Shown in pieces: positions 33,113 through 52,425 of a stretch of DNA of 64,000 nt. Under the pieces are notes generated by a model. That model ran no database searches. It was not told the DNA's origin and worked only from the letters and a program-made list of their open reading frames with translations. The stretch is taken from assembly GCA_963706025.1 (NCBI GenBank), contig CAVPLM010000005.1:1056001-1120000 (forward strand), given 5' to 3'. Source of the DNA: an uncultured Actinomycetes bacterium. GTDB taxonomy: Bacteria > Actinomycetota > Thermoleophilia > RBG-16-64-13. Positions within the stretch are counted from its first letter, which is position 1; each line of letters begins with the position of its first letter. A program made the translations under genes and the position numbers.

Positions 33113-35644
33113 CTACGCCTCCCACTTCGAGACTTCTACGAGAAAGGACATGTTGGCTTCGCCGTATGCGTTCTTGCTGGTCATGCGCGAATGCGACAGC
33201 AGGTTCACGCACCCGCCTCGGTCGATTGACTCGGCCACGCCCGGCTCCAACGGATCGTACTTGGCCGCGGCCTGGTAGGAATGGAGCAGTCCCGGACGGC
33301 AGCGTTCGGTCACCAGAGCCACACCGAGCACGCGGGCGCGGTCGTTGTAGACCATGACGATGTCGCCGTCCTTGATGCCCCGCGCTTCCGCGTCGGCAGG
33401 GTTCATGCGCATGGGCCAGTAGGCGTACCCGTTTTTGACGATGCGGTGCTGCCGTATGTCGTTCAGCCACTCGATCTTGTCGTCCTGGTGGGTGTGGTAG
33501 GAGAACCTGGCGTGCGGCGTCATGATGATGAGGGGGTACTTCTTGGCCAGTTCCGACTCGTGCCCCTCATAGAGAGGGATGTAGCGCGGCATGGGCGGCC
33601 GTTCCTCGTCGTCGGGGAAGTACTCCTGGAGTCTCGTCCGCACGAACTCGATCTTGCCGCTCGGGGTAGCCAACTCGGTGGCTTTGTCGGTCCCCTGCAG
33701 CGGGTTGAAGCGGTCGGGGGTGTCGACCGGCCGACCCTCGTAGTACCACTTGTTGGAGACGGTGGGCTTGTAGTCCTCAGGTAGCGACGGCACCACGAAG
33801 TAGCCCTTTTCTTTAAACTCCTCGTAGGTTACGTGCTTGGGCAGGTCGGTGTAGTCGAAGACCTTCCGTATCCAATCCTCTTCCGAGTTGCCCTCGGTGT
33901 ACTCCTCCAGGAAGCCCAGGCGCTCGGCCAGTTCGCAGTAGATCTGGTAGTCGGGCTTGGATTCCCACAGAGGCTCGATGCACTTCTGCTGGTACATGAG
34001 GATGCGGTGGTTGCAGTTGACGTTGCCGTTGCCGTAACCACCTGGCTGGGCCCACTCGGAGATGTCTTGGTGCTCGAAGTTGGTACTTGCCGGCAGGATG
34101 ACATCGCCGAAGGTGGTCTCACTCTGCCAGTGGCAGTCCTGCATGACCACGAACTCCAGCTTGGGCGACTGGTACATCCGCACCCATTTGCTGGTGTCGG
34201 TCATAGTGGAGATGAAGGAGCCGCCATGGCGGTGGATCATCCGGATCTCGGCGCCGTTCGGACCGGGCTCGGGGTACTGCATGGGCTTGAACTGCTGCTC
34301 GGCATACTGCACGCAGAAGCCTTCGCCCAGCCACTCTATGTGGCCGTCCAGGATCGCTTCGGGCAGGAGAACACGGTAGACCTTCTGAGTGACCTGGTTA
34401 CGGTCCGGGAAGGTGGGCTGCTTGGCGACCAAGCCGAAGACGTCCCACCCCACGTCGGAATAGCCGGCGCTCTTGAAGCTCATGTCGAGCGGTGCGCCGT
34501 GAGCGGTACCGCCCCAGAGGTTGACCCCGTCCTTACCGATACCCGTCATGGCAGCCAGGTGGATCATAAGGCTGCACCACTCGGTGGCATACGAGTTGCG
34601 GCAGGCGCCGGCGGTGCCGTACTGGGTGCCGGTAGCGATCATGGTCTTCTTGGACGCCCACTGCTGAGCCACCGCCTTGATGGTGTGAGCGGGGATGTCA
34701 CAGATGGGGGCAGCCCACTCCGGAGACTTGGGGATACCATCGGTCTCGCCCAGGATGTAGGCCTTCCACTCGTCGAAGTGGACGGTGCGGTTTTCGATGA
34801 ACCAGTGGTCGTAGGTGTCATCTACGATCCACTGGTAGGCGATGGCCTGCGCCAAAGCGGCGTCGGTGCCGGGCCGCGGAGCCAGCCACTTGTCGGCCAT
34901 ATGCGCTGCGGTGGCGTTGCAGTACGGGTCGATGAAGATGCCCGTGACACCCAGTTCCCTGAGCCACTCCCTCCAGATGACGGTCTCCTGGCCGCCGTAG
35001 CCACCGGCAGACGTGTTGGGATCCACGGACCAGTAGATGACCTGCTCGGTGTGCTTCAGGGCCTCGGCCAGCATGTCGAAGGCGTCGCTCTGGCCGAATC
35101 TCCAATACCAACCCCAGGTGTGCACGCTGCCCCAGTGCCAGCCTTCCCAGGAATCGGGGTTATCCAGGAGCTGGGTGTAGCCCAGGATGTTGTAGAAGCG
35201 GGGCATGGGGCCCATCTTGTAGTAGAGGAGACCGTAGTTGTGGTGGGAGGACACAAAGGCCGTGATGGCCGCCTTCCCGTAGGTACCCTGGATGCGCTTG
35301 ATCTCGCTCGTGACGATGTCCAGTGCCTCGTCCCAGCTGATGCGCACGTATTCGTCCTTGCCCCTGAGCTCGGGATGCCGCTCGCCGTTGGGGTCGAAGT
35401 TCTTGCGCTTCATGGGATACTTGATGCGGTTCTCCGCATAGACGCGCATGCGCTCGGCTATGTTGAAGGAGTTGATGGTGGTCTTCCGGGGATCGGAGAA
35501 CTTCTTGCCCTTGGCCTCGATGGTCCAGTGGCCGCCGTCCTCTTCGGTCAGACGCAGGGGGCGCATGCGGGTGATGACCCCGTCCTTGACGGTGACCTTC
35601 ACCATGCCCCCGATGCAACAGTTGATGAATTCTTGCTCTGCCAT
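33113..35644 (-). CDS. Mo-bis-MGD oxidoreductase large subunit, pyrogallol transhydroxylase/resorcinol hydroxylase family (paralog 1)
   Basis: SSHHNYG, NPDSWEGWHWG (Ser Mo ligand), PRPGTDAAL, ILPASTNFE and HARFSYHT. No Tat signal and no N-terminal Fe-S motif. Confidence 0.88.
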   Translation of the reverse strand: MAEQEFINCCIGGMVKVTVKDGVITRMRPLRLTEEDGGHWTIEAKGKKFSDPRKTTINSFNIAERMRVYAENRIKYPMKRKNFDPNGERHPELRGKDEYVRISWDEALDIVTSEIKRIQGTYGKAAITAFVSSHHNYGLLYYKMGPMPRFYNILGYTQLLDNPDSWEGWHWGSVHTWGWYWRFGQSDAFDMLAEALKHTEQVIYWSVDPNTSAGGYGGQETVIWREWLRELGVTGIFIDPYCNATAAHMADKWLAPRPGTDAALAQAIAYQWIVDDTYDHWFIENRTVHFDEWKAYILGETDGIPKSPEWAAPICDIPAHTIKAVAQQWASKKTMIATGTQYGTAGACRNSYATEWCSLMIHLAAMTGIGKDGVNLWGGTAHGAPLDMSFKSAGYSDVGWDVFGLVAKQPTFPDRNQVTQKVYRVLLPEAILDGHIEWLGEGFCVQYAEQQFKPMQYPEPGPNGAEIRMIHRHGGSFISTMTDTSKWVRMYQSPKLEFVVMQDCHWQSETTFGDVILPASTNFEHQDISEWAQPGGYGNGNVNCNHRILMYQQKCIEPLWESKPDYQIYCELAERLGFLEEYTEGNSEEDWIRKVFDYTDLPKHVTYEEFKEKGYFVVPSLPEDYKPTVSNKWYYEGRPVDTPDRFNPLQGTDKATELATPSGKIEFVRTRLQEYFPDDEERPPMPRYIPLYEGHESELAKKYPLIIMTPHARFSYHTHQDDKIEWLNDIRQHRIVKNGYAYWPMRMNPADAEARGIKDGDIVMVYNDRARVLGVALVTERCRPGLLHSYQAAAKYDPLEPGVAESIDRGGCVNLLSHSRMTSKNAYGEANMSFLVEVSKWEA

Positions 35645-35648
35645 ACCT

Positions 35649-38214
35649 TTACGCCTCCCACTTTGCGATCTCGACCAGGCAGGAATTCTGGGCTTCGCCC
35701 GGGACGTTCTTTGAGACCAACTTGCTGGGGGTCAACAGGTTGACGCAGCCGCCCCTGTCGGGGCTGCCGGCCTTGCCCGGCTCCAGCGGATCGTACTTAG
35801 CCGCCGCTTCGTATGAGTGGACGGTCCCCGGCCTCACCCGTTCGGTCACCAAGGCGGCACAGATGACCGTGCCGCGGTCGTTGAAGACCTTCACCAAGTC
35901 GCCATGCTTGATGCCGCGCGCCTTGGCATCCTCCGGGTTGATGCGCACCGGCCAATAAGCGTAGCCGTCCACCTTGACCCGGTGCTGCGGTATGTCGTCC
36001 AGCCAGAAGCTCTTGTTGTCGTGATGGGTGTGATACGAGAACCGCGGATGCGGTGAGATCATCTGTAGTGGCCACTTCTCGACAAGACCCTTGGTGTCGT
36101 AGCCTTCCCAGCTGGGGATGTACCGGGCCATGGGCGGCCGCTCTTGGTCGTTCGGGTCGAAGGCCATGAGGGTCTGGGACACGAACTCCACCTTACCGCT
36201 GGGAGTGGCCAGGTTGGGCCCATTGAACGGCGGGTTCGGAGGATTCCTCTTCTCCGAGGGCACGTCAGCGTCGCGGCCCTCATAGAACCAGCGGAAAGAG
36301 ACCTTGGGCTCTTCATCATCGGGTCTACACGGCACCACGAAGTAGCCCTTCCTCTTGAACTCCTCGTAGGTGATGTACTTGGGCAGGTCGGACTTCTTGA
36401 AGACGATGCGGTTCCAGCCCTCGATATCGTGGCCTTCGGTGTACTCGTCCTTGAAGCCCAATCTCTCAGCCAGAAGCGTGTAGATCTCGTAATCGGGCTT
36501 GGACTCCCACAGCGGCTCGATGCACTTGTGCTGGTAGATGCAGATGCGGTGGTTGGCGTTGAAGTCGTTGAACCCGTAGCCGCCCGCTGCACCCCACTCT
36601 GAGAGGTCGGAGTGCTCGAAGTTGGTGCTGGCGGGCAGGATGACGTCGCCGAACTTGGTCTCGCTCTGCCAGTGGCAGTCCTGCATGACTACGAACTCGA
36701 GGTTGGGGTGCTGATACATCTGCACCCACCTGTTGGTCTCGCTCATGGTGCTGATGAACGAACCGCCGTGGCGGTGGATCATCTTGATGGGAGCGCCGTC
36801 GGGCCCTTCCTCCGGACAGGTGAAGCGATGGAACTGCTGCTCGATGTTCTGGCCGCAGAAGCCTTCGCCGATCCAGCTCACCGGGGGGTTCATGACGATC
36901 TCCGGCAGCAGAAGACGGTACGTCTTCTGAGTCACCGGGTTGCCGACAGGGAAGTACGACTTTTCCGCCACAGTCCCGAAGGCGTCCCAACCGTTGTCGG
37001 AGTAGCCGAACATGTGGAAGCCCATATCGAGGGGCGAACCTTTGCCGGTGCCTCCCCAGAAGTTGACCCCCGGCTTGCCGAAGCCCTGCATGGCCATGAG
37101 GTAGATGCACAGGCGGCACCACTCGGTGGCGTACGCCTGACGGCAGGCGCCGGCGGCTCCAAAGATGCTGGCCACGGCCAACATGGTCTTCTTGGCCGCC
37201 CACTCGCGCGCCAAAGCCGTGATGGTGTGAGCCGGGACGTCACAGATAGGCGCCGCCCACTGCGGGGTCTTGGGCGTTTTGTCCTCGCCCTGGCCCAGGA
37301 TGTGCTTCTTCCATTCGTCGAAGCCGTAGGTCCGGTTCTCGATGAAGAAGTGATCGTAGGTGTCATCGGTGAGCCACACGTACGCGACGGCCTCCGCCAG
37401 CGCAGCGTCGGTGCCCGGGCGCGGAGCGATCCACTTGTCGCCCATGGTGCTCATGGTGCAGTTGTTGTGGGGGTCGATGACCACGAACTGGATGCCCAGC
37501 TCCTTCATCCAGTGCCGCCAGATGAGGTTCTCTTGGCCGCTGTACATGTAGGAGGTGCTGTTCGGATCCACCGACCAGAAGATGATCTGCTCGGTGTGCT
37601 TGAGCGCATCCTGCAGCAACTCGGACTGCTCGCAATGACCGAGGCGCCACCAGTAGCCCCAGGCGTGCGTCGCCCCCCAGTGCCACCCCTCCCAGCTATC
37701 GGGGTTGTCGAGGCACATGCTGTAGCCCAGGATATTGAAGAAGCGGCCGAGAGGGCCGAGTTTGTAGTGCAGGAAGCCCCAGTTGTGGTGCGAGGAGGTC
37801 ATGGCGGTGATGGCCGCCCGGCCGTACGTTTCCCGGATGCGGGTGATCTCCCCCGCCACGAGGTCGAGGGCCTCATCCCAGGAGATGCGCACGTACTCGT
37901 CCTTGCCGCGAAGCTCCGGATGGCGGTCGCCGGCGGGGTCGAAGTTCTTGCGTCGCATCGGATACTGGATGCGATTGTTGTAGACACGCTGCCGCTCGGG
38001 CACTTCCCAGCGACTGCAGCGTGGTCTTGCGCGGTGGGGTGTATTTCTTCCCCCGCGCCTCGATGGTCCACGACGGAGCGTCAGACTCGTCGAAGATGAT
38101 GGGGCGCATCCGGGTGATGACGCCGTCCTTCACATAGACCCTGACGGGTCCACCGACCGTGCACTGTATGAACACCTGTTCATCTGACATCCCACTACTC
38201 TGGTCGAAGGACAT
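35649..38214 (-). CDS. Mo-bis-MGD oxidoreductase large subunit, same family (paralog 2); +1 frameshift near 38010
   Basis: The N-terminus (QCTVGGPVRVYVKDGVITRMRP) is in ORF 37873-38277. The rest (SSHHNWG, NPDSWEGWHWG, HPRFSYHT) is in ORF 35649-38003. Collinear with paralog 1. Confidence 0.87.
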
Positions 38215-38291: not shown

Positions 38292-39485
38292 CTAGAGTTC
38301 GACAAACTGGATGAAGACCGGGTTCTGAACCGGGACTTCCGTCAGGACCTTCAGGCTTCCATCATTTGCGTCTACCGCATATGACCGGATCACATCCGCC
38401 GGGCGATCCGGGACGAGCAGGAATGCGCCGTCGGGCGAGAGCGTCATGCAGCGTGTTGCGTCTTTGGGATCCTCAGATTTGCTTAGCTCAACCCGTCCAG
38501 CCTTCTTGAGATGGCCATCCTCAGAGATGCTGAACCAGACGACGTCATCTTGTCCCCGGTTGTTCATATACACGAAACGGCCGTTCGGATGCACCTGCAA
38601 GGTGGCCGTCTCGTTGCGTCCCGTGAACCCGGAGAGCGTCGATTGCTTGTCGATGAAACTCAGCACCCCGCTGGAACTATCGAAGTCGAAGGACCAGAGT
38701 TCAGAAGAGAACTCGCACGTCATGAACATGCGGCCTTTCCTATCAAAGGCAGCATGCCTGGGACCGGTTCCCGCCGGGCACTGGTAAACAGAGGCGAGCG
38801 TCAGTCTTCTTCCTCCGATCCGGTAGACGTAGATCCGCTCCCCTGCCTTTTCGCACACCACCAGGAACTTGCCTGAGGGGTCGATCACGACGATGTGCGC
38901 GTGAGGACTGGCCTGCGCGTGGCCTCCGCCCTGCGGGGAATCGTTCGGATCCGTGCCATATCCGGTCAGTACATGCACGTCTTGAACTTCACCGATGGAA
39001 CCGTCCTCTTCAAGCCCGTACTGGACGACCGTCGAATCGTCATATTCGAACTTCTCCACCCACTTGCCATCAGCAATCTCGACCGCTTTAACCACGTGAT
39101 CGAAGAAGCCATGGTTGGCAGTGAAGAGGAGCTTCTTGTCTTCGTCAACGGTTATAGAGGCCGGCATTGCCCCCAAAGACGGCTGCCTGTTCAGAAAGGT
39201 CAACTGTCCGGACTGCGGATCCACCTTGAACGCTAGTACGCCCGAGGCCGGCTTCTTGGGTCCTCGTCCGTCGGTCTTCCTTTCGTCGACCGCATAGAGG
39301 ACCTTCGCTTCTGGTGCATAGGCGAGATATCCCGCCCTCTTCGGCATATCCTCCACACCGCCTGGAAAGGGCGTGATGCTGCTTCCATCCGCGCTGATTT
39401 CAAAGACCGAGATGCCGCCGCCCTCAAATCTATCAACGTGATTGCGTCCCACGTAAGCAATCAGCCGCTTCTTGTCCGTGCTCAC
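38292..39485 (-). CDS. Lactonase family 7-bladed beta-propeller (6-phosphogluconolactonase/cycloisomerase-like)
   Basis: HAH..VIDPSGKF, GTGPRHAAF, HPNGRFVYMNNRG and LSPDGAFL blades. Confidence 0.85.
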   Translation of the reverse strand: MSTDKKRLIAYVGRNHVDRFEGGGISVFEISADGSSITPFPGGVEDMPKRAGYLAYAPEAKVLYAVDERKTDGRGPKKPASGVLAFKVDPQSGQLTFLNRQPSLGAMPASITVDEDKKLLFTANHGFFDHVVKAVEIADGKWVEKFEYDDSTVVQYGLEEDGSIGEVQDVHVLTGYGTDPNDSPQGGGHAQASPHAHIVVIDPSGKFLVVCEKAGERIYVYRIGGRRLTLASVYQCPAGTGPRHAAFDRKGRMFMTCEFSSELWSFDFDSSSGVLSFIDKQSTLSGFTGRNETATLQVHPNGRFVYMNNRGQDDVVWFSISEDGHLKKAGRVELSKSEDPKDATRCMTLSPDGAFLLVPDRPADVIRSYAVDANDGSLKVLTEVPVQNPVFIQFVEL

Positions 39486-39515
39486 GTCTCTTCTCCTGTC
39501 TAGCGTTCTGTTCTC

Positions 39516-40670
39516 TTACAGTTTTGGAGGCACGCCGGGAAGATCGGGGTACTTGGCCGCGACCTCGAGCACTCTCGGATCCTGCAGGCACATGAGGTAG
39601 CCGTTGTCGTAGACAAGCTTGTCGTTGACCTTGAGGGTGACGTTGCGGATGTCCGCGGTGATATGCGGATAGTAGTTGTAGTTCTCATTGGCCGGGGCCG
39701 AGCCGACGTGCCAGTGCACGTTCGAGTGGTGCGAGTGGTCGATTATCCGCTTGTAGATCGCGTGCGGGCACTGGGCATCCGTGACCTTCGCGTTCGGGTG
39801 GATGCCGAAGTGGAAGGTGTCGAACTTCCACATGCCGTCGCCGACCTTGCCTTCCATGACCTTCAGGAAGCGATTGATCGCGTCGGCTTCTTTGCCGCCC
39901 GAGATCTTGACCATGCGGCTGTCCTTGACGTCCACACGGACCGGTTCCTTCCAGGCCGGGGGGAGGCCCATGTAGCGCGACCACCAGGGGAGCATGCAGT
40001 CGAAGAAGAAGACGCCGTTGACGTCCTTACTGTTGATCGGAGGGTGGACCCACTCGGGGTAAGGGATGTAGTGGCTCGCATCCCTGCGCCAGGAGTTGTA
40101 GGGCATGCCGGGGATGCCGGGGCGCTGCACCGGATCGAGCGAGTAGCCTTCGAGCTCCGTGCCGTTGGGATCGGTCATCACCCATTTGGCCTCATGGGTC
40201 ATGAAGGGATCGGAGCTTACGTGGCGGACCATGACCACGAGCTCATGCGGCGTCTGGGCCCACTCGCTCATCAGGAGCGAGGCGGTGACGGGGAACATGC
40301 GCACGTACCAGGTCTTGACCTCTTCGATGTACTTGCGGAACTCGGCGACCTCTTCGATGGCCAGGTCGAGGGAGGTATTGATGAACAGATCGGCGTTGGC
40401 GATGGCGCCCTTGACGACGGGCGGCAGGCGCCACTCGTGGGCCTTCATCACCTCGTCGATCCAGAGGATCGAGCAGTTGGCGCCGCGCGACTGGACCACA
40501 GCCTGGGTCCAGCTGATGGCCTGCTCATCGACCAGGTTGTCACTGCCATAGAGGCCGTCGCTGTGGGCCAGGATGACGACCTCCATGCCCGGCTTGACCT
40601 GGGCGTCGTGGTCCACCATCTGGATGAGCGAGTTCAGCGCTGCCTTGGGAATGCCCAATTGATGACTCAC
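39516..40670 (-). CDS. Aminopeptidase-T/NicX-fold metalloprotein of unknown function
   Basis: VKPGMEVVIL N-domain, DPNGTEL, GVFFFD, FHFGIHPNA, HWHVGS and PHITADIRNVTLKV resemble the M29/NicX architecture. Confidence 0.6.
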   Translation of the reverse strand: MSHQLGIPKAALNSLIQMVDHDAQVKPGMEVVILAHSDGLYGSDNLVDEQAISWTQAVVQSRGANCSILWIDEVMKAHEWRLPPVVKGAIANADLFINTSLDLAIEEVAEFRKYIEEVKTWYVRMFPVTASLLMSEWAQTPHELVVMVRHVSSDPFMTHEAKWVMTDPNGTELEGYSLDPVQRPGIPGMPYNSWRRDASHYIPYPEWVHPPINSKDVNGVFFFDCMLPWWSRYMGLPPAWKEPVRVDVKDSRMVKISGGKEADAINRFLKVMEGKVGDGMWKFDTFHFGIHPNAKVTDAQCPHAIYKRIIDHSHHSNVHWHVGSAPANENYNYYPHITADIRNVTLKVNDKLVYDNGYLMCLQDPRVLEVAAKYPDLPGVPPKL

Positions 40671-40698
40671 GATCTCTCTCCTTTGTTCTCTTACGCCA

Positions 40699-41211
40699 CT
40701 AGGTGTCTAAGCCCGCGCGACCGTTGGGGTCGAGCGGGAAATGCAGGTGCCACTCAGGGATCCCTAGATCCTCGAGCACCTTTCCTCTGAGTTTGAACAG
40801 GGTCGTCGCCAAACGCTCACGCTCGCTCTTGGTGAGCACCGAGAAGAGCCGCCGGTCGGTCTCGTTGTGGAGCGACTGCCTGAACACATCCAGGCCTTTT
40901 TCCGTCAGGCTGACCTCGATCCGCGACCGGCCGGCCGACTTCTCTCGCTTGATCAGCCCGTCTTTTTCCATGCGCTTGAGCATCTCAGTGACGGAGTTGA
41001 GCTCGCGGAAGAGATCCCGCGCGATCTCGACGGGCGTCGCCCGGCCCCCGTTATTCTGGATGATGAACAGCACAGCCCGTCGTTCGTTGCTGATACCGAA
41101 GCGCGCGTAGTCCCTCTCCCGCGCCCTGAGGATCGCGTCTTTCGTCTGGGCGATCAGCACCCACAGCATGAAGTACTCATCCGGGAGCTGCGTGTCTTCG
41201 GTAACGGGCAT
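40699..41211 (-). CDS. MarR-family transcriptional regulator
   Basis: GISNERRAVL..TPVEIAR..SVTEMLKRMEKDGLIKR..VSLTEKG winged helix. Confidence 0.9.
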   Translation of the reverse strand: MPVTEDTQLPDEYFMLWVLIAQTKDAILRARERDYARFGISNERRAVLFIIQNNGGRATPVEIARDLFRELNSVTEMLKRMEKDGLIKREKSAGRSRIEVSLTEKGLDVFRQSLHNETDRRLFSVLTKSERERLATTLFKLRGKVLEDLGIPEWHLHFPLDPNGRAGLDT

Positions 41212-41212
41212 C

Positions 41213-42253
41213 TCATTCCCCTATCTTGAAGAGCCTCTGCGCATTCCCACTCAGAATAAGGGATTTGCTCTCTTCGGGAATGTCCAGGTTCTTGACGAAG
41301 TCGATACCGGTCACGAACCAATCCCGCCTGACCGGATATGAGCTGCCATACAGGATGTGGTCGGCCCCCAAGACCTCCACCGCGCACTCGAGTTGGGCCT
41401 TGCCCCACTGCATGGCGCCGGAGGTATCGTAGAAGATGTTCTTCTCGAGACGGTCCCATGCCGTATCGGCGCTGTCGAAGCGTTCCAACTCTTCCTTGGA
41501 CCTGCGAGAGCGGGGCGCCAGCATGTTGGAGTACGCAAAGAAGCCGCCGCCCAGCATGGTGTGGATGAGCTTGAGGTTGGGACACTCCTCAAACAGGTCG
41601 CTAAAGATCTCGCGGCCCACCCCGGTAGCCTGATCGACACAACGGCCGTATTGGCGGCGCTGGTTGGTGTACTTGATCAGTGAGGCATAGTCCACCGGCA
41701 GCGGGGTGTGGTGGACGACTACGGGGACATCGAGCTTGTTGAGTTCCCTGAAGTAGGGGCGAAACTCCGGCTCGTCCAGGTATAGGCTGCCGTAGTGGAC
41801 GGCCATCTGCACTCCCGAGAAGCCGAGTTTGTTCAAGCAGCGCTCGACCTCGGCAAGGCACTCGGGGGTGCCCCACGGGGGCGCCACGGCCAGAGTGCAG
41901 AACCGACCGGGATACTTGTTGATGTGCGCGTACAGCTTGTCGTTGACCTGCCTGCACTGTTCGAGCGAGAGCCACTCCTGCCAGCAAGGGACCCGCAGGA
42001 CGCCGATGCCCACTCCGGCGGCGTCCATGTCCTTGAGCTGGGTCTCGATGTCGTACTGATTCTCGGCGTAGTTGAGGTTCTCGTAACCCTGCGGCTTCTC
42101 CAAGACGATCTGCTGGAGGTCGGTGCCCGGCATGGGCTTGACGCAGCCGTACCACTCATCGTCGTTCGGGACACAACTGACGAAAGAGTCCCTCAGCGCC
42201 ACGTCCGTGAAAAGGTCTTCGGGAAGCCAATGCATATTGGCGTCTATGATCAT
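41213..42253 (-). CDS. Amidohydrolase-2 family metalloenzyme (aromatic decarboxylase/cyclohydrolase-like)
   Basis: IIDANMHW, VVVHH, IHTMLGG, YDTSG and ILYGSSYP...NAQRLF. Confidence 0.85.
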   Translation of the reverse strand: MIIDANMHWLPEDLFTDVALRDSFVSCVPNDDEWYGCVKPMPGTDLQQIVLEKPQGYENLNYAENQYDIETQLKDMDAAGVGIGVLRVPCWQEWLSLEQCRQVNDKLYAHINKYPGRFCTLAVAPPWGTPECLAEVERCLNKLGFSGVQMAVHYGSLYLDEPEFRPYFRELNKLDVPVVVHHTPLPVDYASLIKYTNQRRQYGRCVDQATGVGREIFSDLFEECPNLKLIHTMLGGGFFAYSNMLAPRSRRSKEELERFDSADTAWDRLEKNIFYDTSGAMQWGKAQLECAVEVLGADHILYGSSYPVRRDWFVTGIDFVKNLDIPEESKSLILSGNAQRLFKIGE

Positions 42254-42432: not shown

Positions 42433-43746
42433 TCATTGGTACATCAGGTTCGGCAGCCACGTGGACAGCCAGGGCAAGAACACGAGCAGCACCAGGAAGA
42501 TCAGCATCGTCCATACGAACGGCCAACATCCTCTGAAGATCGTGTACATGGGCACCTCTTTGTGCATCCCGGCCAGGGAGAACACCACGACCCCTACCGG
42601 AGGCGTGATGCAGCCCACCATGATGCAGAGGATGGCGACGACCCCCAGTTGGAGCGGGTCGAAGCCCATGTCCGTGAGGATGGGGAAGAAGATGGGCAGG
42701 GTGATAATCATCACCGACCAGATGTCCATCAGCATCCCCAGGATGAAGTACAGGAAGATCACGAGGAGCAGCACCAGATACCTGCTGAGTTCGGCCTCCA
42801 CCAGCGCGTTGGAGATGGCCGGAGCGATCTCGCTGGTGGTGAGGAAGTGGCTGAAGTACTGGGCGCCGAAGATGAGCAGCAGGATCATGGCCGAGATCTG
42901 GGCGGCCTCGAGCAGGGCGTGGCCGATCATCTTGAGCGAGAACCGCTTGTAGAAGATGCTCACGATGATGACCGCCAGCGTGCCGGCGGCGCCGGCTTCG
43001 GTTGGGGTGAACAGACCCGACAGAAGACCGCCCATGACGAAGATGAACACGATCAGGATGCCGATGATCCCTTTGAGCGACTTGAGCCGCTCCGTCCAAG
43101 TGGCCTTCGGCTGGACCGAGGACAGATTGGGATTGATCCTACATTGCAGTGCGATCTGGATCATGAACATGAGGGTCAGGACGATGCCCGGCAAGATACC
43201 GGCGATGAACAAGGCGGCGATGGATGTCTGGGTGATGAAGCCGAACACGACGAAAGCCGTGCTCGGGGGGATGAGGATCCCCAGGTTGCCGCCCGCTGCG
43301 ATGGAACCGAAGGAGAGCCGGTCGTCGTAGCCGTACTTACGCATCTCGGGCAGGGCCGCCTTGTCCATGGTGGCTGCCGTGGCGATGTTGTCACCGCAGA
43401 CCGCGCCAAAAGCCGCGCAGGTGCCGACGGTGGCCATGGCTAAGCCGCCGCGCAGGTGGCCCACCCAGCGGTTGAAGGTCTTGAAGGCGCTCTCGGTCAC
43501 CCCGCCCTTCCCGGCGACAATGCCCATGAGGACGAAGAGTGGGATCACCACCAGGTACTGGGAGTTGCCCACGCGCCACACCGTGGTGGCCAGGGTGTTG
43601 AGGGCCGGTTCCAGACCCCGGGAGAGCCAGATGCCGACGAACCCCGCGACCATGAGCGACAGCCCCACGTGCATTCGCAGGAACATGAGTATGAAGAAGA
43701 GGCCGGCGCCGATGAGCCCTAGGGCCCACAGGGGAAGCTCGCTCAT
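42433..43746 (-). CDS. dctM: TRAP transporter large permease
   Basis: IPLFVLMG, GGLAMA, GNLGILIPPS, FTPTEAG and ITPPVG. Confidence 0.93.
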   Translation of the reverse strand: MSELPLWALGLIGAGLFFILMFLRMHVGLSLMVAGFVGIWLSRGLEPALNTLATTVWRVGNSQYLVVIPLFVLMGIVAGKGGVTESAFKTFNRWVGHLRGGLAMATVGTCAAFGAVCGDNIATAATMDKAALPEMRKYGYDDRLSFGSIAAGGNLGILIPPSTAFVVFGFITQTSIAALFIAGILPGIVLTLMFMIQIALQCRINPNLSSVQPKATWTERLKSLKGIIGILIVFIFVMGGLLSGLFTPTEAGAAGTLAVIIVSIFYKRFSLKMIGHALLEAAQISAMILLLIFGAQYFSHFLTTSEIAPAISNALVEAELSRYLVLLLVIFLYFILGMLMDIWSVMIITLPIFFPILTDMGFDPLQLGVVAILCIMVGCITPPVGVVVFSLAGMHKEVPMYTIFRGCWPFVWTMLIFLVLLVFLPWLSTWLPNLMYQ

Positions 43747-44297
43747 TTCTTCACCGCCTCAGCCAGGGACCGAAGGAAGCGCATCACAAAGATGGGGATC
43801 ATGGTGAAGATCCCGAAGGCGGCCAGATACGTGAACGGGTAGATCTCGATGGGGACGTTGCGTGTCCGCTGGTTGGCCTCCTGGTAGGTCATGGCCAGCT
43901 TCACCAGTTGCCAGCACAGGATGCAGAAGATGGCTATGCCCAGGAGATAGATGATCGGCTGGACGATCAGTTGCACCCGCTTCGGCAGGTGCTTGGCCAC
44001 GATGTCGACCGTCATCTTCTCGTGCCGCCCCATGTGCTCGTAACCGATAACCAAGAAGGTGATGACCACCAGCCCCAACTGGGTGATCTCGGTCGACCCC
44101 TTGAGAGGCGCATTGAAGAAGCGGCGCCCGATGATCGACCAGATCATCGCCAGGACCATCGCTCCCAGGGCCGCGGCTCCGATGTACGCAAGCCACTTGT
44201 AGATAGGCTTGATGAAGGCCTCGACGGAGTCCGCGGCCTTGGCAAGGCCGGTGGTCGGCACTGCGGCCGCGCCCTCGGGTTGCCCGTGTTCACTCAT
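43743..44297 (-). CDS. dctQ: TRAP transporter small permease
   Basis: 4 TM segments, GRRFFNAPLKGSTEI and MTVDIV. Lies between dctP and dctM. Confidence 0.88.
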   Translation of the reverse strand: MSEHGQPEGAAAVPTTGLAKAADSVEAFIKPIYKWLAYIGAAALGAMVLAMIWSIIGRRFFNAPLKGSTEITQLGLVVITFLVIGYEHMGRHEKMTVDIVAKHLPKRVQLIVQPIIYLLGIAIFCILCWQLVKLAMTYQEANQRTRNVPIEIYPFTYLAAFGIFTMIPIFVMRFLRSLAEAVKK

Positions 44298-44316
44298 GCG
44301 TGTCCTCCAACTGGGT

Positions 44317-44351
44317 CGATCGGCCCCGGCCGGGATGGCCGGGGCCGATCG
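44317..44351 (-). terminator. Intercistronic hairpin between dctP and dctQ
   Basis: 15-bp perfect stem CGATCGGCCCCGGCC/GGCCGGGGCCGATCG with a 5-nt loop. Confidence 0.65.
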
Positions 44352-44364
44352 TCATCGCGTTGGC

Positions 44365-45816
44365 TTACGGGATCATGTACTCGTAGGTAGCGCCACCGTG
44401 CGCAACATCGGTGGCGACGATCTTCGCGAGGCCGGCGACTCCGGAGTAGTCGAGCACGCCCTCCGCCGCCTCGGGGATATCAAGCGGGCCGAGGCTCTTG
44501 CCGCTTGCGTCGAAGCCCTCGACCTTGGCACCGAACGGACCTTCTGTGGAGACCGCGAACTGCTGCCCCGGCTCAGGCACGATTGTGAGCTTGACCTTGC
44601 TGTTGCCCAGGTCTTCGAAGAAGATCCCGGTGGTTCCGGCCGGTGCGGTGGTGGTGGTCACCTCGGTCGGGGCCATGGCGCCGTACTTTTCGACGAGTTG
44701 GACGGCCTGATCAAGCACCGCCTGAGCCTCGCCACCGGTCTCCTGCACCCACGTGCCCCACACCGGCTCGGCAGCGGCCTTCCACAACGCCAGCTCTTCC
44801 GCGGTGGGCACATAGATAGGAGGATTGCCCGCACCCTTGTCGGACCCTTCGATAGCGGCCTTGTCCTCCGCCGCCAACGCCTCGTTCGCCGCGTTGTAAG
44901 CCGAGAAGGCGTCGGGATTGCTGACGCTCACGATCTGGTCCTGAAGCACCTTGGGCATGGAATCCCAGACATCCTTGTTCAGGATCAGGGCGAAGGCGCG
45001 GTAGAACATGTCGGTCTCAGTACGGTACTGGGTGACGTCTTTGATCCCGGTGATCAGGGCGAAGGAGTAGCTGAGGAAGCAGGAGTCGGCCATGCCTCTT
45101 TCCATGGAGGTCGCCAGTTCACCTGTGCTGATCTCCACCGGAGTCGCGCCAAGAGCCTCGATGAGCCAGGCCTCGATCTGTCCGCCCGACCGCACCCTCT
45201 GGCCGGTCATGTCGGCGGGGACTTTGGCCTCTTTGCTACCGAAATACTGGGCCGGAGCGATGACTGGGCAGCCCACCAGCACTACATCCTTCCATTCCTC
45301 GGCAGCGGGAGAGTCGGTGAGGATATCCCAGTAGACCCGGCCCGTCACTTCGGCGCTGGGGAACATCTGCGGCAGGCCGTAGAATTCCGACAGCGGGAAG
45401 CGGCCCGGAGTGGCGTCGGCCGTCAGCGAGGCGATGTCGGCAAGACCGGAGGTGACGGCGTCGTACTGGTCGGCCTCTTTCACCAAGGTCTCTTCGGCAT
45501 ACAGTTCGATGGTCACGCGATTGTTGGTCGCCGCCGCGACCGCGTCAATCCACGGCTTGTAGTAGGCCCCGACGATGCTGGCCCTGTCCGGGACGTGGAT
45601 GGACATCTTCAGTTCGTAGGTCTGCCCGGTGTCGGGCACTCCGGCCACCGTGGTGGTGGTCTCGGGTGCCGCGGTGGTCTCGGTGCTCGGAGCCGCAGTG
45701 GTCACCGGCGCGGCGGTGGTGGTGGTCTCTTCTTCGCCGCAGGCCGCCATCAGCGTAGCGAGACCCAGCGCCAATACCAGGGCCAGCAGGCCGACGGCCC
45801 ATTTTCTTTTCTTCAT
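44365..45816 (-). CDS. dctP: TRAP lipoprotein solute-binding protein with extra C-terminal domain
   Basis: Lipobox MAAC, Thr-rich tether, DAVTSGLADI, TPGRFPL, GQRVRSGG and MERGMAD. Start at MKKRKW (45816). Confidence 0.88.
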   Translation of the reverse strand: MKKRKWAVGLLALVLALGLATLMAACGEEETTTTAAPVTTAAPSTETTAAPETTTTVAGVPDTGQTYELKMSIHVPDRASIVGAYYKPWIDAVAAATNNRVTIELYAEETLVKEADQYDAVTSGLADIASLTADATPGRFPLSEFYGLPQMFPSAEVTGRVYWDILTDSPAAEEWKDVVLVGCPVIAPAQYFGSKEAKVPADMTGQRVRSGGQIEAWLIEALGATPVEISTGELATSMERGMADSCFLSYSFALITGIKDVTQYRTETDMFYRAFALILNKDVWDSMPKVLQDQIVSVSNPDAFSAYNAANEALAAEDKAAIEGSDKGAGNPPIYVPTAEELALWKAAAEPVWGTWVQETGGEAQAVLDQAVQLVEKYGAMAPTEVTTTTAPAGTTGIFFEDLGNSKVKLTIVPEPGQQFAVSTEGPFGAKVEGFDASGKSLGPLDIPEAAEGVLDYSGVAGLAKIVATDVAHGGATYEYMIP

Positions 45817-45960
45817 CTCACTCCCCCTCTGCAATATCCGATAGCTCGTCTTCATGCAACTGTCTTTTGGGACCCGACAAAGCCGTGTGCCTGTGTTTCC
45901 ACCCCCTCCATTCTCGACCCATCGCCCACCGAGTTCTGTTTCGAACCAAGTGAGCGGCTG

Positions 45961-48524: not shown

Positions 48525-49340
48525 TCACCCCACCAGTTCGGGCGACAGTTTCAGCCGCTCCACCACCTCGTCGACGGTCGCCGGCTCGAGGTTCATCGAC
48601 CTCGCCACGCCCACGAGTTGCTCGACGAGCTGAGCGTTGGAGGTGGCCAGCTCCTTCGGCCTGACGTAGAGCGTGTCCTCGAGACCGGTGCGCGCGTTGC
48701 CGCCCATGGCCAGACCGATGGTGGTCAGCGGCAGGTTGGCCTTCGAGATGGCGATCACCTGCCAGCTGGTGTTCGGGGGCAACTCGCGGACGAGATAGGA
48801 GAGCAGCATGGGATCGGCCGGCATGCCGCCCTTGACACCCATGACGAACGAGACCTGCAGCGGTTCGGTGAGGAGGTCCCTCTTGAGGAGGTCCAGCATC
48901 AGGCCAAGGTGCCCGGTGTCGTAGATCTCGACCTCCGCCTTCACGCCCAGCTCGCGCATGCGCGCAGCCAGCTGAAGCATCTGCTTCGGCGGGTTCCGGA
49001 ACTCGATCTCGCCGATGGTCATGGTGGCGGGATTCAAGCTGGCCATGGCCGGCTTTGCCTCCACGATCTTCATGCGGTCCTCGTAGGGGAACCCGCCGCC
49101 AGTGGAGAGCTGCACGATACCTGGACACTTCTCGCGCACCAAATCCACCGTGCGCCGCGCCACGTCCAGGTCGGTGGTGAAATCGTCGTTGTCCCGCAGA
49201 TGGATGTGGATAACGGCGGCGCCGGCCTCGTAGGCTCCCTTGGCGCTTTCGGCGATCTCCTCCGGGGAGCCCGGCATCGCGGGGCTGTCCTTCTTGGTGG
49301 CGGCGGGGCCGGTGAGCGAGGCGGTGATGATCGGGTTCAT
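48525..49340 (-). CDS. Beta-keto acid cleavage enzyme (BKACE/DUF849; Kce-like)
   Basis: IITASLTG, EEIAE..AYEAGAAVIHIHLR (HxH), STGG, EIYD.GH and RTGLED. Confidence 0.92.
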   Translation of the reverse strand: MNPIITASLTGPAATKKDSPAMPGSPEEIAESAKGAYEAGAAVIHIHLRDNDDFTTDLDVARRTVDLVREKCPGIVQLSTGGGFPYEDRMKIVEAKPAMASLNPATMTIGEIEFRNPPKQMLQLAARMRELGVKAEVEIYDTGHLGLMLDLLKRDLLTEPLQVSFVMGVKGGMPADPMLLSYLVRELPPNTSWQVIAISKANLPLTTIGLAMGGNARTGLEDTLYVRPKELATSNAQLVEQLVGVARSMNLEPATVDEVVERLKLSPELVG

Positions 49341-49510
49341 GGTGTGAGGCCTCCTAGCAGAGCGTTGTGCATGAGAACGTTGTAGACAGAGTGTTGCGCG
49401 TCGTGTCGATCAGTGGGTCGCGCAGCAGTATGCCGCCTCCGAGCCCACGCGTTCCGCGAAAGCGGTCTTTTCATAGGCGCGCGACCTTCTTCCCGGCCTG
49501 AGCGGGCCGC

Positions 49511-50268
49511 TCAGACCGCGGACAGTCCACCGTCGACGTAGATGATCTGCCCGGTCATGAAGTCCGATTCGTCCGACGCCAGCAGGATGATGGGACCGAA
49601 TAGGTCCTCCGGCGCGCCCAGGCGGGACAGCGGGATCTCCGCCGTCATCTTGGAGTAGATCTCCGGCTTGGAGAGGAATTCACGGGTCATGTCGGTGATG
49701 ACGAGCGCCGGCGCGATGGCGTTCACGTTGATGTTGTACTTGGCCCACTCCGCCGCCAAGGTCCGGGTCAGCTGGTCCACGCCGCCCTTGCTCGTGGCGT
49801 AGGCTGAACCACCGATCGAGGGGGCGACCCGTCCTCTCACCGAGGACATGTTGATGATCTTGCCGCGCTTCTGCTCGATCATGACTCTGCCCACAGCCTG
49901 GCACGCCAGGAACATACCGACGATATTGAACTTGACGACCCTCTCGAACTCCTCCGGAGGCATCTCCTCCGCCGAGAAGCGTGCGTTGGTACCGGCGATG
50001 TTGACGAAGGATGTCGATCTTGCCGAACTCCTTCATCGACCTGGTCGACCATGTCCTTCATCGCAGAGGCGCTGGTGACGTCGGCCGAGACGGCCAAGGC
50101 CTTGCGTCCCGTCCCTTCGATGTCCTTGACCACCGCCTCCAGGTGCCCCGGGTCGAAGTCGGCGGCGACCATGTCCGCGCCGCACTGTGCCAGACGGACG
50201 GAGATCGGTCGCCCCAATCCGCCGCCAGCCCCCGTTACGACCGCAACCTTGCCTGTCAGATCGAACAT
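49511..50268 (-). CDS. Short-chain dehydrogenase/reductase (candidate phloroglucinol reductase); two +1 frameshifts near 50037 and 50008
   Basis: MFDLTGKVAVVTGAGGGLG, FGKIDIL, VNIAG, NMSS, YATSK and VNAIAP are spread over three frames. AAGGAGG RBS. Confidence 0.85.
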
Positions 50269-50333
50269 CGGACCTCCTTGAGTTTCTGGAAAAACGACGG
50301 GCATCTTGTCGCCCTGCCTCAGTCGCGGCTCAC

Positions 50334-51285
50334 TCAGTCGCGGCTCATGAACAGCTTGAGTTGCGGCAGCAGCCGGCGATTCTTCTCTTCGAGGACTTCC
50401 GCGCGCGTCTTGCCGCTGTAGTCGTACCAGCCCTTGCCCGACTTGATCCCCAACTCGCCTTTGTTGACCTTCTCCACCAGGATCGGCGACGGTTCGGTCG
50501 CGTTGCTCAGGCCCTTGAACACCCGGCCCGATACCACCATGGCGATGTCGAGACCGATCATGTCCTCCACCTCCATGGGGCCCAGGCAGGCGAACCTGAA
50601 ACCGGTGCTGCTCTTGATGGCGATGTCCAGGTCCTCGGGGGTCACGATCCCTTCGTCGAGCAGGTAGTCGATCTCCCGCTCGATCGCGCCCATGATGCGG
50701 TTCACGATGAAGCCCGGCACCTCTTTGCGCACGAGCACGGTCTTCTTGCCCGAGGCCTCCATGAGGCGCTTGGTCTCCTCGAAAGCGGCATCAGAGGTCT
50801 CGCTGCCCCGGTGGATCTCGACCAAGGGGATGATGTGCCCGGGATTGAAGTAGTGGATGCCGATGATGTTATCGGGATTCGGCATCCCCTCGGCCAGCGA
50901 ATCGACCGTCAGGCTGCCGGTGTTGCTCCCGATGATCACATCCGGGTTGGCCGCCTGGATGAGCGCCCAAGAGAGCCCTCTTGTCGTCGAGGATCTCGCG
51001 GATCGTCTCCACCACGTAGCTGCATCCCTCGACCGCTTGGACCATGTCGGTGGTGACCATGCCCTCGATGCGGTCCATCACTTGGTCGACCGTCTCCTCG
51101 ATCAGGTCGAATTCGATGAACTGCTGGATGTTGTGGCGAAGCTGCTCGAGAGCCCGGGTCAGCGGCTCTTCACGGCGCGCCACGAGCCGTACGTCGAACC
51201 CGTTCTGTGCGAAGGTCTGAGCGATGCCTTCGCCCATCGTCCCCGTGCCCACGATCAGTATCTTCTGCGCGTTTCCTGTACTCAT
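50334..51285 (-). CDS. 3-hydroxyacyl(-CoA) dehydrogenase family protein; +1 frameshift near 50965
   Basis: IVGTGTMGEGIA and VVETIRE in one frame, then SNTGS, IHYFNP, PGFIVNR and GKGWYDY in the next. Confidence 0.88.
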
Positions 51286-51304: not shown

Positions 51305-52160
51305 CTACTTCTTGTGCTGGGGCCGATCCCCCAGGAAGTCGGCAGCGATCTTGTCGAAATTGTGCCGAGTGGCCTGCAGCGCAACGGCGTACATCTCGGC
51401 CAGAACGTGGACGCGTTCATCGTCCTGCAGGGCGCGTTTCCACGGGCGCATCACGAGCTCATGGGTTAGGCGGCGGACGGCCCGGCCCTGACTTCATGAT
51501 GTGGTTGGCGATCTCGTAGGCGCGCGGGATGAGCTGGTCGTGCTCGACGATCTCGTTGATGAGACCCCAGTCCAGGGCGGTCTTGGCGTCGATCTTGGGC
51601 TCCATGTAGGCCATGTAGGCCGCCCGCTTCTGCCCGACACACACGCGGTAGGAGAAGTTCATGCCATCGCCGGGAACGATGTTGTGCGAGAAATGGGCAT
51701 CCGAGAAGTAGAAGTCGGGGACGCAGATGGCGATGTCCGCCATCAGGGCGAATTCGTAGTGCTGTCCGATCCCGTTGATGGCGGCGATGACGGGGACTTC
51801 GATGTCGTTGATGAAGTTCTCGACGAAGTTCATCGTGTCTGGAACGTTGCAGTTGTACTTGAGAGCAAGGTCGGTGGAGTCCTCGACTTCATCGAACGAG
51901 GCGGGGTCGCTCCTCTGGGTAATCCAGTAGGGGTCCGCGCAGGTCAGGATGATGATCTCGTTCTGCTTGTCGTGTCCGATGGCGGTCCACAGTTCGCCGT
52001 AAGCATTCTGGGTCTGGTAGCTCCAAACACAGGCCTCGCCTCTCCAGTGAAGACGACAGAGAAGAATGCCGTCCTCCGTGCGCTCCAGGTGGGCGAAATC
52101 CTTGAACCGTTCGCTGTATTCCTCTAACGTTTCCACGTGTACATAAGGCTGCATTGCCAC
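51305..52160 (-). CDS. Crotonase-superfamily beta-diketone hydrolase (6-oxocamphor hydrolase-like); +1 frameshift near 51485
   Basis: EEYSERF..LERTEDGILL..H..G..VW, IEVPVIAAINGIGQH and DAHFSHNIVPGDG. The corrected C-terminus ...RAVRRLTHELVMRPWKRALQDDERVHVLAEMY...KK ends at TAG 51305. Confidence 0.8.
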
Positions 52161-52185: not shown

Positions 52186-52425
52186 CTACATCTCGGCTAT
52201 CTTGTCGTCTTTGTATTCGATGTAATCGAAGTCATGCGCTGATTTGCTCAGGTTGAACGAGTACATCTCCGAGATCACCTGGGTGCGAAGGTACTTCTCG
52301 ACGTACTCACGCCAGGGTTTCACGCAAAGATGATGGGTCATGCGCCGGCAGGAGCGGGTCTTCTGCATGATGTTGCGAGCCAGTTCCCAGGACCTGTCCA
52401 TGATCTTGTCTCTCTCCACGATAAC
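52186..52425 (-). pseudogene. 3' remnant of a second crotonase paralog
   Basis: IVERDKIMDRSWELARNIMQK..RRMTHHLCVKPW..ISEMY..HDFD aligns with the C-terminal part of the adjacent crotonase. The catalytic N-terminal part is absent. Confidence 0.75.

Follow-up and report, generated by a model that had tools for sequence, protein, structure and literature searches.

A candidate 6-oxocamphor-hydrolase-type ring opener in a phloroglucinol-type gene module of an uncultured actinomycete

What opens the ring in a phloroglucinol-type gene module that carries a crotonase gene where a cyclase gene would be expected? Phloroglucinol is a funnel for the anaerobic mineralisation of tannins and flavonoids, and to our knowledge only one type of enzyme opening its ring is known, the Mn-dependent cyclase-family DPGC. 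The question arose at a 64,000-nt stretch of DNA, called the window here, from an uncultured Actinomycetes bacterium (Thermoleophilia, RBG-16-64-13; assembly GCA_963706025.1, contig CAVPLM010000005.1, positions 1,056,001 to 1,120,000 of the forward strand). It contains a gene, cro1, whose product was taken in an initial annotation, made from the letters alone, for a crotonase of the 6-oxocamphor hydrolase (OCH) type that might open dihydrophloroglucinol or a related cyclic 1,3-dione. The same annotation placed cro1 in an operon with a 3-hydroxyacyl dehydrogenase (HADH), an SDR and a beta-keto acid cleavage enzyme (BKACE), and Pfam searches confirmed these three families downstream of cro1 on the same strand (Table 1).

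Fold, family and catalytic residues of the cro1 protein

The cro1 gene spans 856 nt, that is 285 codons and one additional nucleotide. Its first frame is an open reading frame of 233 aa (52160..51459, minus strand) and its last ~59 codons lie in the next frame (51484..51305, with the stop at 51307..51305); the protein has 284 aa when read through. In 21 related loci, taken from GTDB genomes, both parts are contiguous and in frame, and the resulting 284-aa proteins are 69-97% identical to the window protein over the first frame.

Pfam analysis detected only a partial ECH_1 match (residues 117-226, 3.7e-17) and no PF04199 domain; cro1 is at most an analogue of the cyclase-family DPGC and not a member of that family. 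When the window open reading frame was compared with the PDB by phmmer, the best matches were OCH (1o8u, 2.7e-29, residues 12-222) and the Anabaena beta-diketone hydrolase, ABDH (2j5g, 1.2e-26; joint range 12-223). Ordinary hydratases scored 2.5e-10 or worse, with the exception of 7mcm (3.9e-20), which was matched in the C-terminal half only. A profile of 29 family members gave 2.8e-45 for OCH, 2.8e-43 for ABDH and 2.7e-20 for the next match, the best hydratase. An AlphaFold2 model of an intact cro1 orthologue (pLDDT 86.3, pTM 0.88) was then submitted to Foldseek. Ranks 1-11 were all occupied by OCH or ABDH chains and the first hydratase appeared at rank 13; for 1o8u_A the TM-scores were 0.79/0.90 with a root-mean-square deviation of 2.1 Å and 30% identity. 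The comparison with the OCH structure suggested in the initial annotation thus ended on OCH and ABDH as the closest structures, and not on CoA-dependent hydratases.

The motifs NGxxxH and DxHFxxxIVPGDG, on which that annotation relied, are present as N-G-I-G-Q-H and D-A-H-F-S-H-N-I-V-P-G-D-G. HMMER alignments place W40, F82, H122, H145 and D154 of OCH opposite W46, F89, H134, H156 and D165 of cro1, and all five residues are invariant in the 29 aligned family sequences (29/29). The entry for the H122A mutant of OCH, 1szo, departs from 1o8u precisely at the H134 column. In OCH, His145 and Asp154 form the catalytic dyad. Further invariant residues (R226, R229, R230, H233, R238, P239, W240, E255 and H266) are found in a long C-terminal helix. 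Glu244 of OCH is an acidic residue that reaches the active site from the C-terminal helix; the HMMER alignment stops at OCH residue 239, and the invariant E255 of cro1 is located at about the extrapolated position of Glu244. Comparison with a canonical hydratase paralogue from the same genome revealed that the position of the first catalytic Glu is kept (E136), the second is His156, and G-D-G replaces a G-F-G-G turn. The claim that the protein lacks the Glu motifs of enoyl-CoA hydratases is therefore only half right, as it holds for the second Glu and fails for the first.

Overall, the profile and Foldseek results together with the invariant His/His/Asp set bear out an OCH-type rather than a hydratase-type crotonase, and from sequence and model we predict with high confidence that cro1 is an OCH/ABDH-type hydrolase. 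By analogy with these enzymes it very probably acts without CoA on a C-C bond of a beta-dicarbonyl compound.

The alternative of an ordinary CoA-dependent enoyl-CoA hydratase/isomerase, working in a beta-oxidation-like route on intermediates of the 3-hydroxy-5-oxohexanoyl-CoA type, is in line with the ECH_1 match and with database names, and an older scheme for Pelobacter acidigallici has CoA esters after ring opening. However, the ECH_1 match is confined to the segment given above, no NCBIfam hydratase model reached its cut-off on cro1 (the best gave 98 bits against 354), the second catalytic Glu is a His, and OCH and ABDH match better by more than 20 orders of magnitude. In addition, the neighbouring HADH is without CoA-contact residues (see below) and BKACE enzymes use free beta-keto acids. 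We consider this alternative highly improbable.

A word-indexed protein search found 542 relatives of cro1 at E <=1e-10 among 990 candidates, and in a search of 1.84 billion representatives 57 were found at E <=1e-30 and 443 at E <=1e-10, so far as sequence goes a small, discrete branch. Labels of cluster members include Clostridiales, Lachnospiraceae, Oscillospiraceae, Thermodesulfobacteriota, Rhodospirillales and Burkholderiales. Two relatives are unusual in build: P0001 is a 490-aa form with 87% identity across the full query, and P0078 looks chimeric, its N-terminal two thirds resembling cro2 (a paralogue described below) and its C-terminal third cro1.

Gene order, the parallel cyclase-type module and the proposed reaction

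The search for crotonase-dehydrogenase-SDR-BKACE synteny proposed in the initial annotation was run on the 21 related loci, counting neighbours within 8 kb of cro1 at >=30% identity and >=50% coverage. HADH was found in 15/21 loci, SDR in 14/21 and BKACE in 14/21, and all three together in 14/21. A small cupin gene is present in 12 of the 21, between SDR and BKACE. Other frequent neighbours were a pyrogallol-hydroxytransferase-like large subunit (12/21), a transhydroxylase-like Fe-S small subunit (10/21) and an ATP-grasp_5 protein of the acyl-CoA synthetase beta-domain type (10/21). A distant lineage (L016, GC content 48%) reads TRAP-SDR-cro2-thiolase-BKACE-HADH-cro1-acetate-kinase-like-phosphotransacetylase. 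The seven loci that are without the full set are L004, which has HADH alone, L018, whose contig stops at cro1, and L020-L024, which comprise three Acidobacteriota, one Oscillospiraceae and one 'Pseudobutyrivibrio' contig. The last, L023, has 4872 bases, 62% GC and a cro1 69% identical to that of the window, and is probably mis-binned. Genes of the URO-D family (methyltransferase/decarboxylase family) are located upstream of the crotonases in 4/21 loci, including L005 (5732-7078), L010 and L015; such neighbours may point to O-demethylation of methoxylated aromatics. Up to three transhydroxylase-like large-subunit genes surround cro1 in relatives.

Within the same 8 kb, cyclase genes were absent from the 21 loci except for one marginal match (E 2.6e-4). 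The genome of the window (G000) nevertheless contains six cyclase-family genes and seven BKACE-family matches at six places, and one cyclase/BKACE pair is 2.4 kb apart on its contig C17. There the gene order is BKACE-cupin-SDR-HADH-cyclase(PF04199)-THL-THS-THL, where THL and THS are transhydroxylase-like large and small subunits. The C17 cyclase carries Trp20 and Tyr22, the residues that set CsDPGC apart from isatin hydrolase in the available text of Zhou et al. (2023, PMC10470551). In the PDB search it gave only two weak matches, both to the cyclase family (3.1e-05 and 1.6e-04), so that its assignment as DPGC rests on Pfam, Trp20/Tyr22 and context. Proteins of the window-type and C17 modules are 37-47% identical in pairwise comparison, the two cupins 46%. 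The window-type module therefore consists of the C17 families with one or two crotonases in the place where the cyclase would be, as the initial annotation had supposed.

That annotation had also suggested that the crotonase may replace the metal-dependent cyclohydrolases, and this part did not survive. The crotonase (E <=1e-40) and DPGC-like genes (E <=1e-60) were searched for in 301 genomes sampled evenly from the same class. Crotonase matches were present in 25/301 genomes: 16 of cro1 type (>=84% identity, G000 included), six of cro2 type only (45-52%) and three weaker ones (38-42%). DPGC-like matches were present in 54/301, 32 of which had no crotonase match. All 22/22 genomes with cro1- or cro2-type matches (>=47% identity by one count) also contain a DPGC-like gene and the three weaker ones do not; as kin are not independent, these counts describe a pattern and are not a test. 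Five distant cro1-bearing genomes were also compared. In four of them a DPGC-like gene, 69-81% identical, has homologues of HADH, SDR, BKACE or cupin as neighbours; in the fifth, an SDR and a BKACE gene accompany cyclase genes that stand in tandem and are 27-31% identical. Given 22/22 and 4/5, together with the Trp20/Tyr22 cyclase of G000 itself, the crotonase module is an addition to organisms that have the cyclase-type module and was never found as a substitute for it.

In the phloroglucinol pathway, as given in the available text of Zhou et al. (2023, PMC10470551), an SDR (PGR) reduces phloroglucinol and the Mn-dependent cyclase-family DPGC opens dihydrophloroglucinol, after which the HADH-family TfD oxidises the hydroxy acid and the BKACE enzyme TAL splits triacetate. 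From the order SDR/crotonase/HADH/BKACE and its parallel in the cyclase module, cro1 is best explained as opening the ring of a reduced compound of the phloroglucinol type. The partner dehydrogenase resembles TfD in part. Its intact orthologue has Leu at Lys56 and Gly with a 3-residue insert at Asn221, the CoA-contact positions of C. butyricum HBD, and keeps His138 and Asn188; the same losses of CoA contacts are reported for TfD, a free-acid, CoA-independent dehydrogenase, in what is available of that article.

Fold, family, catalytic residues, gene order, the parallel module and the co-occurrence come directly from the analysis; which reaction is catalysed, on what substrate and in which sequence of steps we infer as follows. 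The neighbouring SDR would reduce a polyphenol of the phloroglucinol type, yielding a cyclic 1,3-dione that cro1 would then open; this dione may be dihydrophloroglucinol or an analogue of it, substituted or isomeric. By analogy with OCH, the His156/Asp165 dyad may activate water, which would attack one carbonyl of the cyclic 1,3-dione; the C-C bond would break and the enolate be protonated with the help of His134 and the C-terminal helix. The resulting 3-hydroxy-5-oxo acid would be oxidised by the CoA-independent HADH-family dehydrogenase and the product split by BKACE with acetyl-CoA, the whole module running in parallel with the DPGC-like module of the same organism. We give about an even chance to this reading, in which cro1 works in a parallel module as a retro-Claisen hydrolase on dihydrophloroglucinol or an analogous cyclic 1,3-dione. 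Since a DPGC-like gene is always present, the ring substrate may be a substituted, carboxylated or isomeric analogue and not dihydrophloroglucinol itself. The window, L006 and L016 each encode a TRAP transporter close to the module, which may hint at a carboxylated substrate. Hydroxyhydroquinone was considered as a substrate and set aside, as its dihydro form should yield 2- or 4-hydroxy-5-oxohexanoate, unfit for a 3-hydroxyacid dehydrogenase and BKACE.

A number of observations weigh against ring opening of this kind. The diketones for which OCH and ABDH are known are bicyclic and non-enolisable, and dihydrophloroglucinol is strongly enolised. With a DPGC-like gene always alongside the crotonase, dihydrophloroglucinol may already be served, and an Amidohydro_2 gene in the same island could encode a competing ring opener. 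In 5/21 loci (L020-L024) cro1 has no HADH, SDR or BKACE neighbour. Each of the 120 relatives listed carries either the name 'enoyl-CoA hydratase' or none at all, and the organism-labelled cluster members, among those inspected, all come from metagenome-assembled genomes (MAGs) and none from isolates. The partner enzymes also differ from their phloroglucinol counterparts. T-R-(S/N) is the NADPH motif of phloroglucinol reductases in the available text of Zhou et al. (2023, PMC10470551); neither T-R-S nor T-R-N was found in the intact SDR orthologue, which has an NAD-type Asp after beta-strand 2. The cyclase-module SDR is alike in this. The best PDB match of the SDR is gluconate 5-dehydrogenase, and no phloroglucinol reductase was named among the best 60 of its 420 PDB matches. 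At the Ser117 position, tied to stereo-recognition in the same text, the HADH of the crotonase module has Gly in all ten module-B sequences (10/10); Ser is found in the cyclase-type module A (3/3) and in L016. Finally, BKACE gave 170 bits with the NCBIfam model for 3,5-dioxohexanoate:acetyl-CoA acetone transferase, where the cut-off is 430. It gave 250 bits with the lysine-fermentation Kce model (cut-off 382), and no NCBIfam equivalog reached its cut-off for any module gene.

Should the substrate be dihydrophloroglucinol itself, cro1 would be a metal-independent isofunctional enzyme, a second copy beside the Mn-dependent DPGC for other conditions or for the other product enantiomer. This special case of the ring-opening proposal agrees with two modules built from the same gene families, with the ring opener as the sole difference, and hydrolysis of dihydrophloroglucinol is a desymmetrisation, the reaction type in the title of Grogan et al. 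2001 on OCH. The difference between the two HADH forms at Ser117, a position of stereo-recognition according to the available text of Zhou et al., could reflect such an enantiomer. CobW-type genes often accompany metal-sparing paralogues. In an Oscillospiraceae MAG (L022, 9105-11215) cro1 is beside two CobW-type (COG0523-like) GTPase genes, a weak hint from one locus; the surroundings of that cro1 hold no pathway genes, only housekeeping genes that are uninformative about the pathway. On the other hand, complete redundancy in 22/22 genomes is less simple than a different substrate, partner enzymes that are only 37-47% identical between the modules suggest long-separate specificities, and the SDR is without the NADPH motif of PGR. 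We regard the isofunctional case as unlikely.

Alternatively, cro1 could cleave a beta-dicarbonyl C-C bond outside a ring: the bond to the exocyclic acyl group in an acylphloroglucinol, intact or reduced, or a bond in a linear diketo or triketo acid, for example triacetate. Phloretin and 2,4-diacetylphloroglucinol (DAPG) hydrolases cleave acylphloroglucinols with other folds. The nested co-occurrence with a DPGC-like gene would suit an upstream feeder enzyme. In the Acidobacteriota L020 and L024 transhydroxylase-like genes are still beside cro1, and L020 has in addition a thiolase and HMGS-like/DUF35 set nearby. The window versions of these last two match PhlC (1.6e-31) and PhlA (5.8e-25), although the archaeal thiolase/HMGS/DUF35 complex (6esq) matches them better (8.9e-61 and 1.7e-31). 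Against this stand the 14/21 operons with their own SDR, HADH and BKACE, which are the needs of a ring-opening step; triacetate cleavage is already covered by BKACE, and both characterised relatives, OCH and ABDH, cleave ring bonds according to their PDB entry titles. A target outside the ring therefore appears quite unlikely, and ring opening is the reading retained below.

The window genes and the state of the operon

Table 1. Features of the window around cro1 and of the cyclase-type module elsewhere in the same genome
Feature	Position	Strand	Basis
cro1, predicted OCH/ABDH-type crotonase-fold beta-diketone hydrolase	51305..52160	-	frames, Pfam ECH_1, PDB searches, model, invariant residues
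cro1 frameshift site, GGG run	51486..51488	-	GG in 4/4 aligned relatives (multiple DNA alignment)
HADH_B, 3-hydroxyacyl-dehydrogenase family, TfD-like	50334..51285	-	3HCDH_N and 3HCDH; extra base at 50960
SDR, probable start ~50268	49511..50304	-	adh_short, adh_short_C2; extra bases at 50037 and 50008
BKACE family, intact gene	48525..49340	-	PF05853, 9.7e-85
cro2 remnant, last ~78 codons of tandem paralogue	52186..52422 (upstream end ~52422)	-	ORF, tblastn, DNA homology
TRAP transporter DctM, DctQ, DctP	42433..45855	-	
Lactonase beta-propeller, NicX-like protein, MarR regulator, Amidohydro_2 protein	38292..42253	-	Pfam; language-model features
Pyrogallol-hydroxytransferase-like molybdopterin large subunits (784 aa or 843 aa)	35649-38003 and 33113-35644	-	PF00384, PF21423
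Transhydroxylase-like Fe-S small subunit	32278-33108	-	Fer4_11 and CarboxypepD_reg-like domain
HMG-CoA-synthase-like/DUF35 fusion	30841-32268	-	Pfam, PDB search
Thiolase-like gene	29653-30837	-	Pfam, PDB search
Cyclase-type module, all frames open	G000:C17:20985-31000 (locus L031 6980-17000)		Pfam and context

The frameshift announced near 51485 in the initial annotation was located as a single extra G at 51488. It sits just before the invariant C-terminal helix (R226 to H266) and cuts the helix off. The description of cro1 as the first intact gene of its operon was imprecise: cro1 leads the three partner genes and is itself broken, HADH and SDR are frameshifted too, and only BKACE is intact. 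Single extra bases occur at 51488 (cro1), 50960 (HADH) and 50037 and 50008 (SDR), each absent in 4/4 aligned relatives. The broken gene upstream of cro1 is what remains, at the 3' end, of a paralogous crotonase gene, cro2, which is ~48% identical to cro1 and intact in tandem with it in 9/21 loci. The 5' three quarters of cro2 are absent from the window; what is left is 60-76% identical to the cro2 of relatives by tblastn, and its DNA homology to L004-L006 begins at 52421/52422. The small cupin gene is deleted in the window (49340-49511) in comparison with L005 (10577-10981), and this is a true deletion relative to L005 and L006.

These changes could mean that cro1 and its operon are a decaying pseudogene in the strain of this genome, which would concern their state here and not the function of the family. 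Four 1-nt insertions lie within 1.5 kb across cro1, HADH and SDR, no frameshift was noticed in the other window genes inspected, cro2 is truncated, the cupin gene has gone, and one insertion removes the invariant helix; frameshifts confined to 1.5 kb need a local cause. To set against this, all four changes are insertions, and contigs from four public metagenome runs of four studies were compared with the window. They represent other populations, ~2-3% different (~97% identical). One letter fewer was present at 50005 and at 50039 in 4/4 runs and at 50960 in 3/4. At 51488 the pieces X1 record 5, X2 record 13 and X3 record 22 each show one gap and are one letter shorter than the window, the missing letter being deduced from the lengths of these three spanning pieces. 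Up to and including 52726 the X2 contig runs collinear with the window; it shares the cro2 truncation and has open frames, which indicates that the truncation is real and common to a population with open frames. Two of the four insertions are no more than 3 nt away from a CCWGG motif, a proximity with a background rate of 4.7% per site; noticed after the fact, it hints at an artefact of base calling. Decay is possible but doubtful on this evidence, and the four extra bases are probably an assembly artefact.

Genes of related long-contig MAGs (BKACE, histidine kinase and NicX-like) are split into 3-4 tblastn pieces with shifted frames, as in L007 13741-14553, L008 7422-8233, L013 14952-16106 and L017 14929-16073, and frameshift errors thus seem common in those assemblies.

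The remaining genes of Table 1 make the region, on sequence grounds, a putative polyhydroxybenzene catabolic island. The two molybdopterin large subunits have 784 and 843 aa, the AhtL-like_1st domain (PF21423) being in the latter. A reading of the thiolase and HMGS-DUF35 proteins as a PhlACB-type acylphloroglucinol enzyme was set aside as a mere lead, because the archaeal thiolase/HMG-CoA synthase complex scores better; the pair possibly serves acetoacetyl-CoA thiolysis or an acylphloroglucinol reaction. The Amidohydro_2 gene (41213-42253) adjoins the MarR and TRAP transporter genes. Its family includes non-oxidative hydroxybenzoate decarboxylases and a steroid ring-A beta-diketone hydrolase, and the protein could be a decarboxylase that feeds the pathway or a competing ring opener. 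NicX is an M29-like 2,5-dihydroxypyridine dioxygenase. The NicX-like protein (384 aa) has no Pfam or NCBIfam match and resembles NicX by language-model features (score 0.95). Its gene is paired with that of the 7-bladed lactonase (window 38292-40670); the pair recurs in L014, L017 and L024 at 65-75% identity, and in L024, an Acidobacteriota locus, it is directly upstream of cro1.

Comparison with known systems

A full-text literature search, with most subscription journals outside its coverage, found no paper in which the opening of dihydrophloroglucinol or of polyphenol rings is tied to a crotonase or an OCH-type hydrolase. The cro1 protein represents an uncharacterised new subfamily of a known kind of enzyme in a new physiological setting. 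We tentatively propose, at somewhat less than even chances, that cro1 and cro2 form a third class of enzymes that open the rings of reduced polyphenols anaerobically, one independent of metals, beside the cyclase-type DPGC and the Amidohydro_2 steroid hydrolase. The family would then mark a second phloroglucinol-type pathway, parallel to the first, that gene transfer has distributed across Actinomycetota, Acidobacteriota, Firmicutes and Desulfobacterota of sediments and soils, and it might perhaps be the long-missing gene type for simple cyclohexane-1,3-dione hydrolases. If so, annotation tools that seek only DPGC under-count the polyphenol-degrading capacity of sediments and soils, and more kinds of ring serve as substrates than has been assumed. 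OCH/ABDH enzymes, a small family associated so far with camphor degradation and biocatalytic desymmetrisation, would acquire a physiological function in the anaerobic carbon cycle, along with new members to try.

The canonical hydratase paralogue of the same genome (G000:C12, locus L002) shares with cro1 the fold and the first Glu, at 28% identity over 153 residues; it differs in its second Glu, a His in cro1, and in the G-F-G-G turn, which is G-D-G in cro1. ABDH (Alr4455 of Anabaena sp. PCC 7120; 2j5g, 2j5s) belongs to the same subfamily as cro1 (E 2.8e-43, Foldseek ranks 8-11), although it is only 27-28% identical and has a different gene context; we know of no physiological substrate for it. 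OCH, or CamK, of Rhodococcus sp. NCIMB 9784 (1o8u, 1szo) has in common with cro1 the crotonase fold, the residues W40/F82/H122/H145/D154 and an Arg-rich C-terminal helix. In contrast to OCH, cro1 is only ~30% identical and ~27 residues longer, with an extended C-terminus carrying its own invariant H233, R238-P-W240, E255 and H266. OCH acts in camphor degradation on a bicyclic terpene diketone, whereas cro1 is found in apparently anaerobic polyphenol-degradation islands and would be expected to act on a small, polar, enolisable ring.

SRAH, the Amidohydro_2-type steroid ring-A beta-diketone hydrolase described in the available text of Jacoby et al. (2025, PMC11780191), hydrolyses a cyclic 1,3-dione anaerobically and so opens its ring, which is also the role proposed for cro1. 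SRAH belongs to another superfamily and is metal-stimulated; in the same text it is virtually inactive on simple cyclohexane-1,3-diones, and the gene of cyclohexane-1,3-dione hydrolase is given as still unknown. The closest parallel in gene context is the DPGC of Clostridium scatologenes (PF04199), which, as far as the available text of Zhou et al. describes it, occupies the same place as cro1 in a set of SDR, HADH-family and BKACE genes. If our reading of cro1 holds, the two would carry out the same retro-Claisen type of ring opening with unrelated folds, DPGC with a metal and cro1 without, and they are not alternatives to each other but co-occur in 22/22 genomes.

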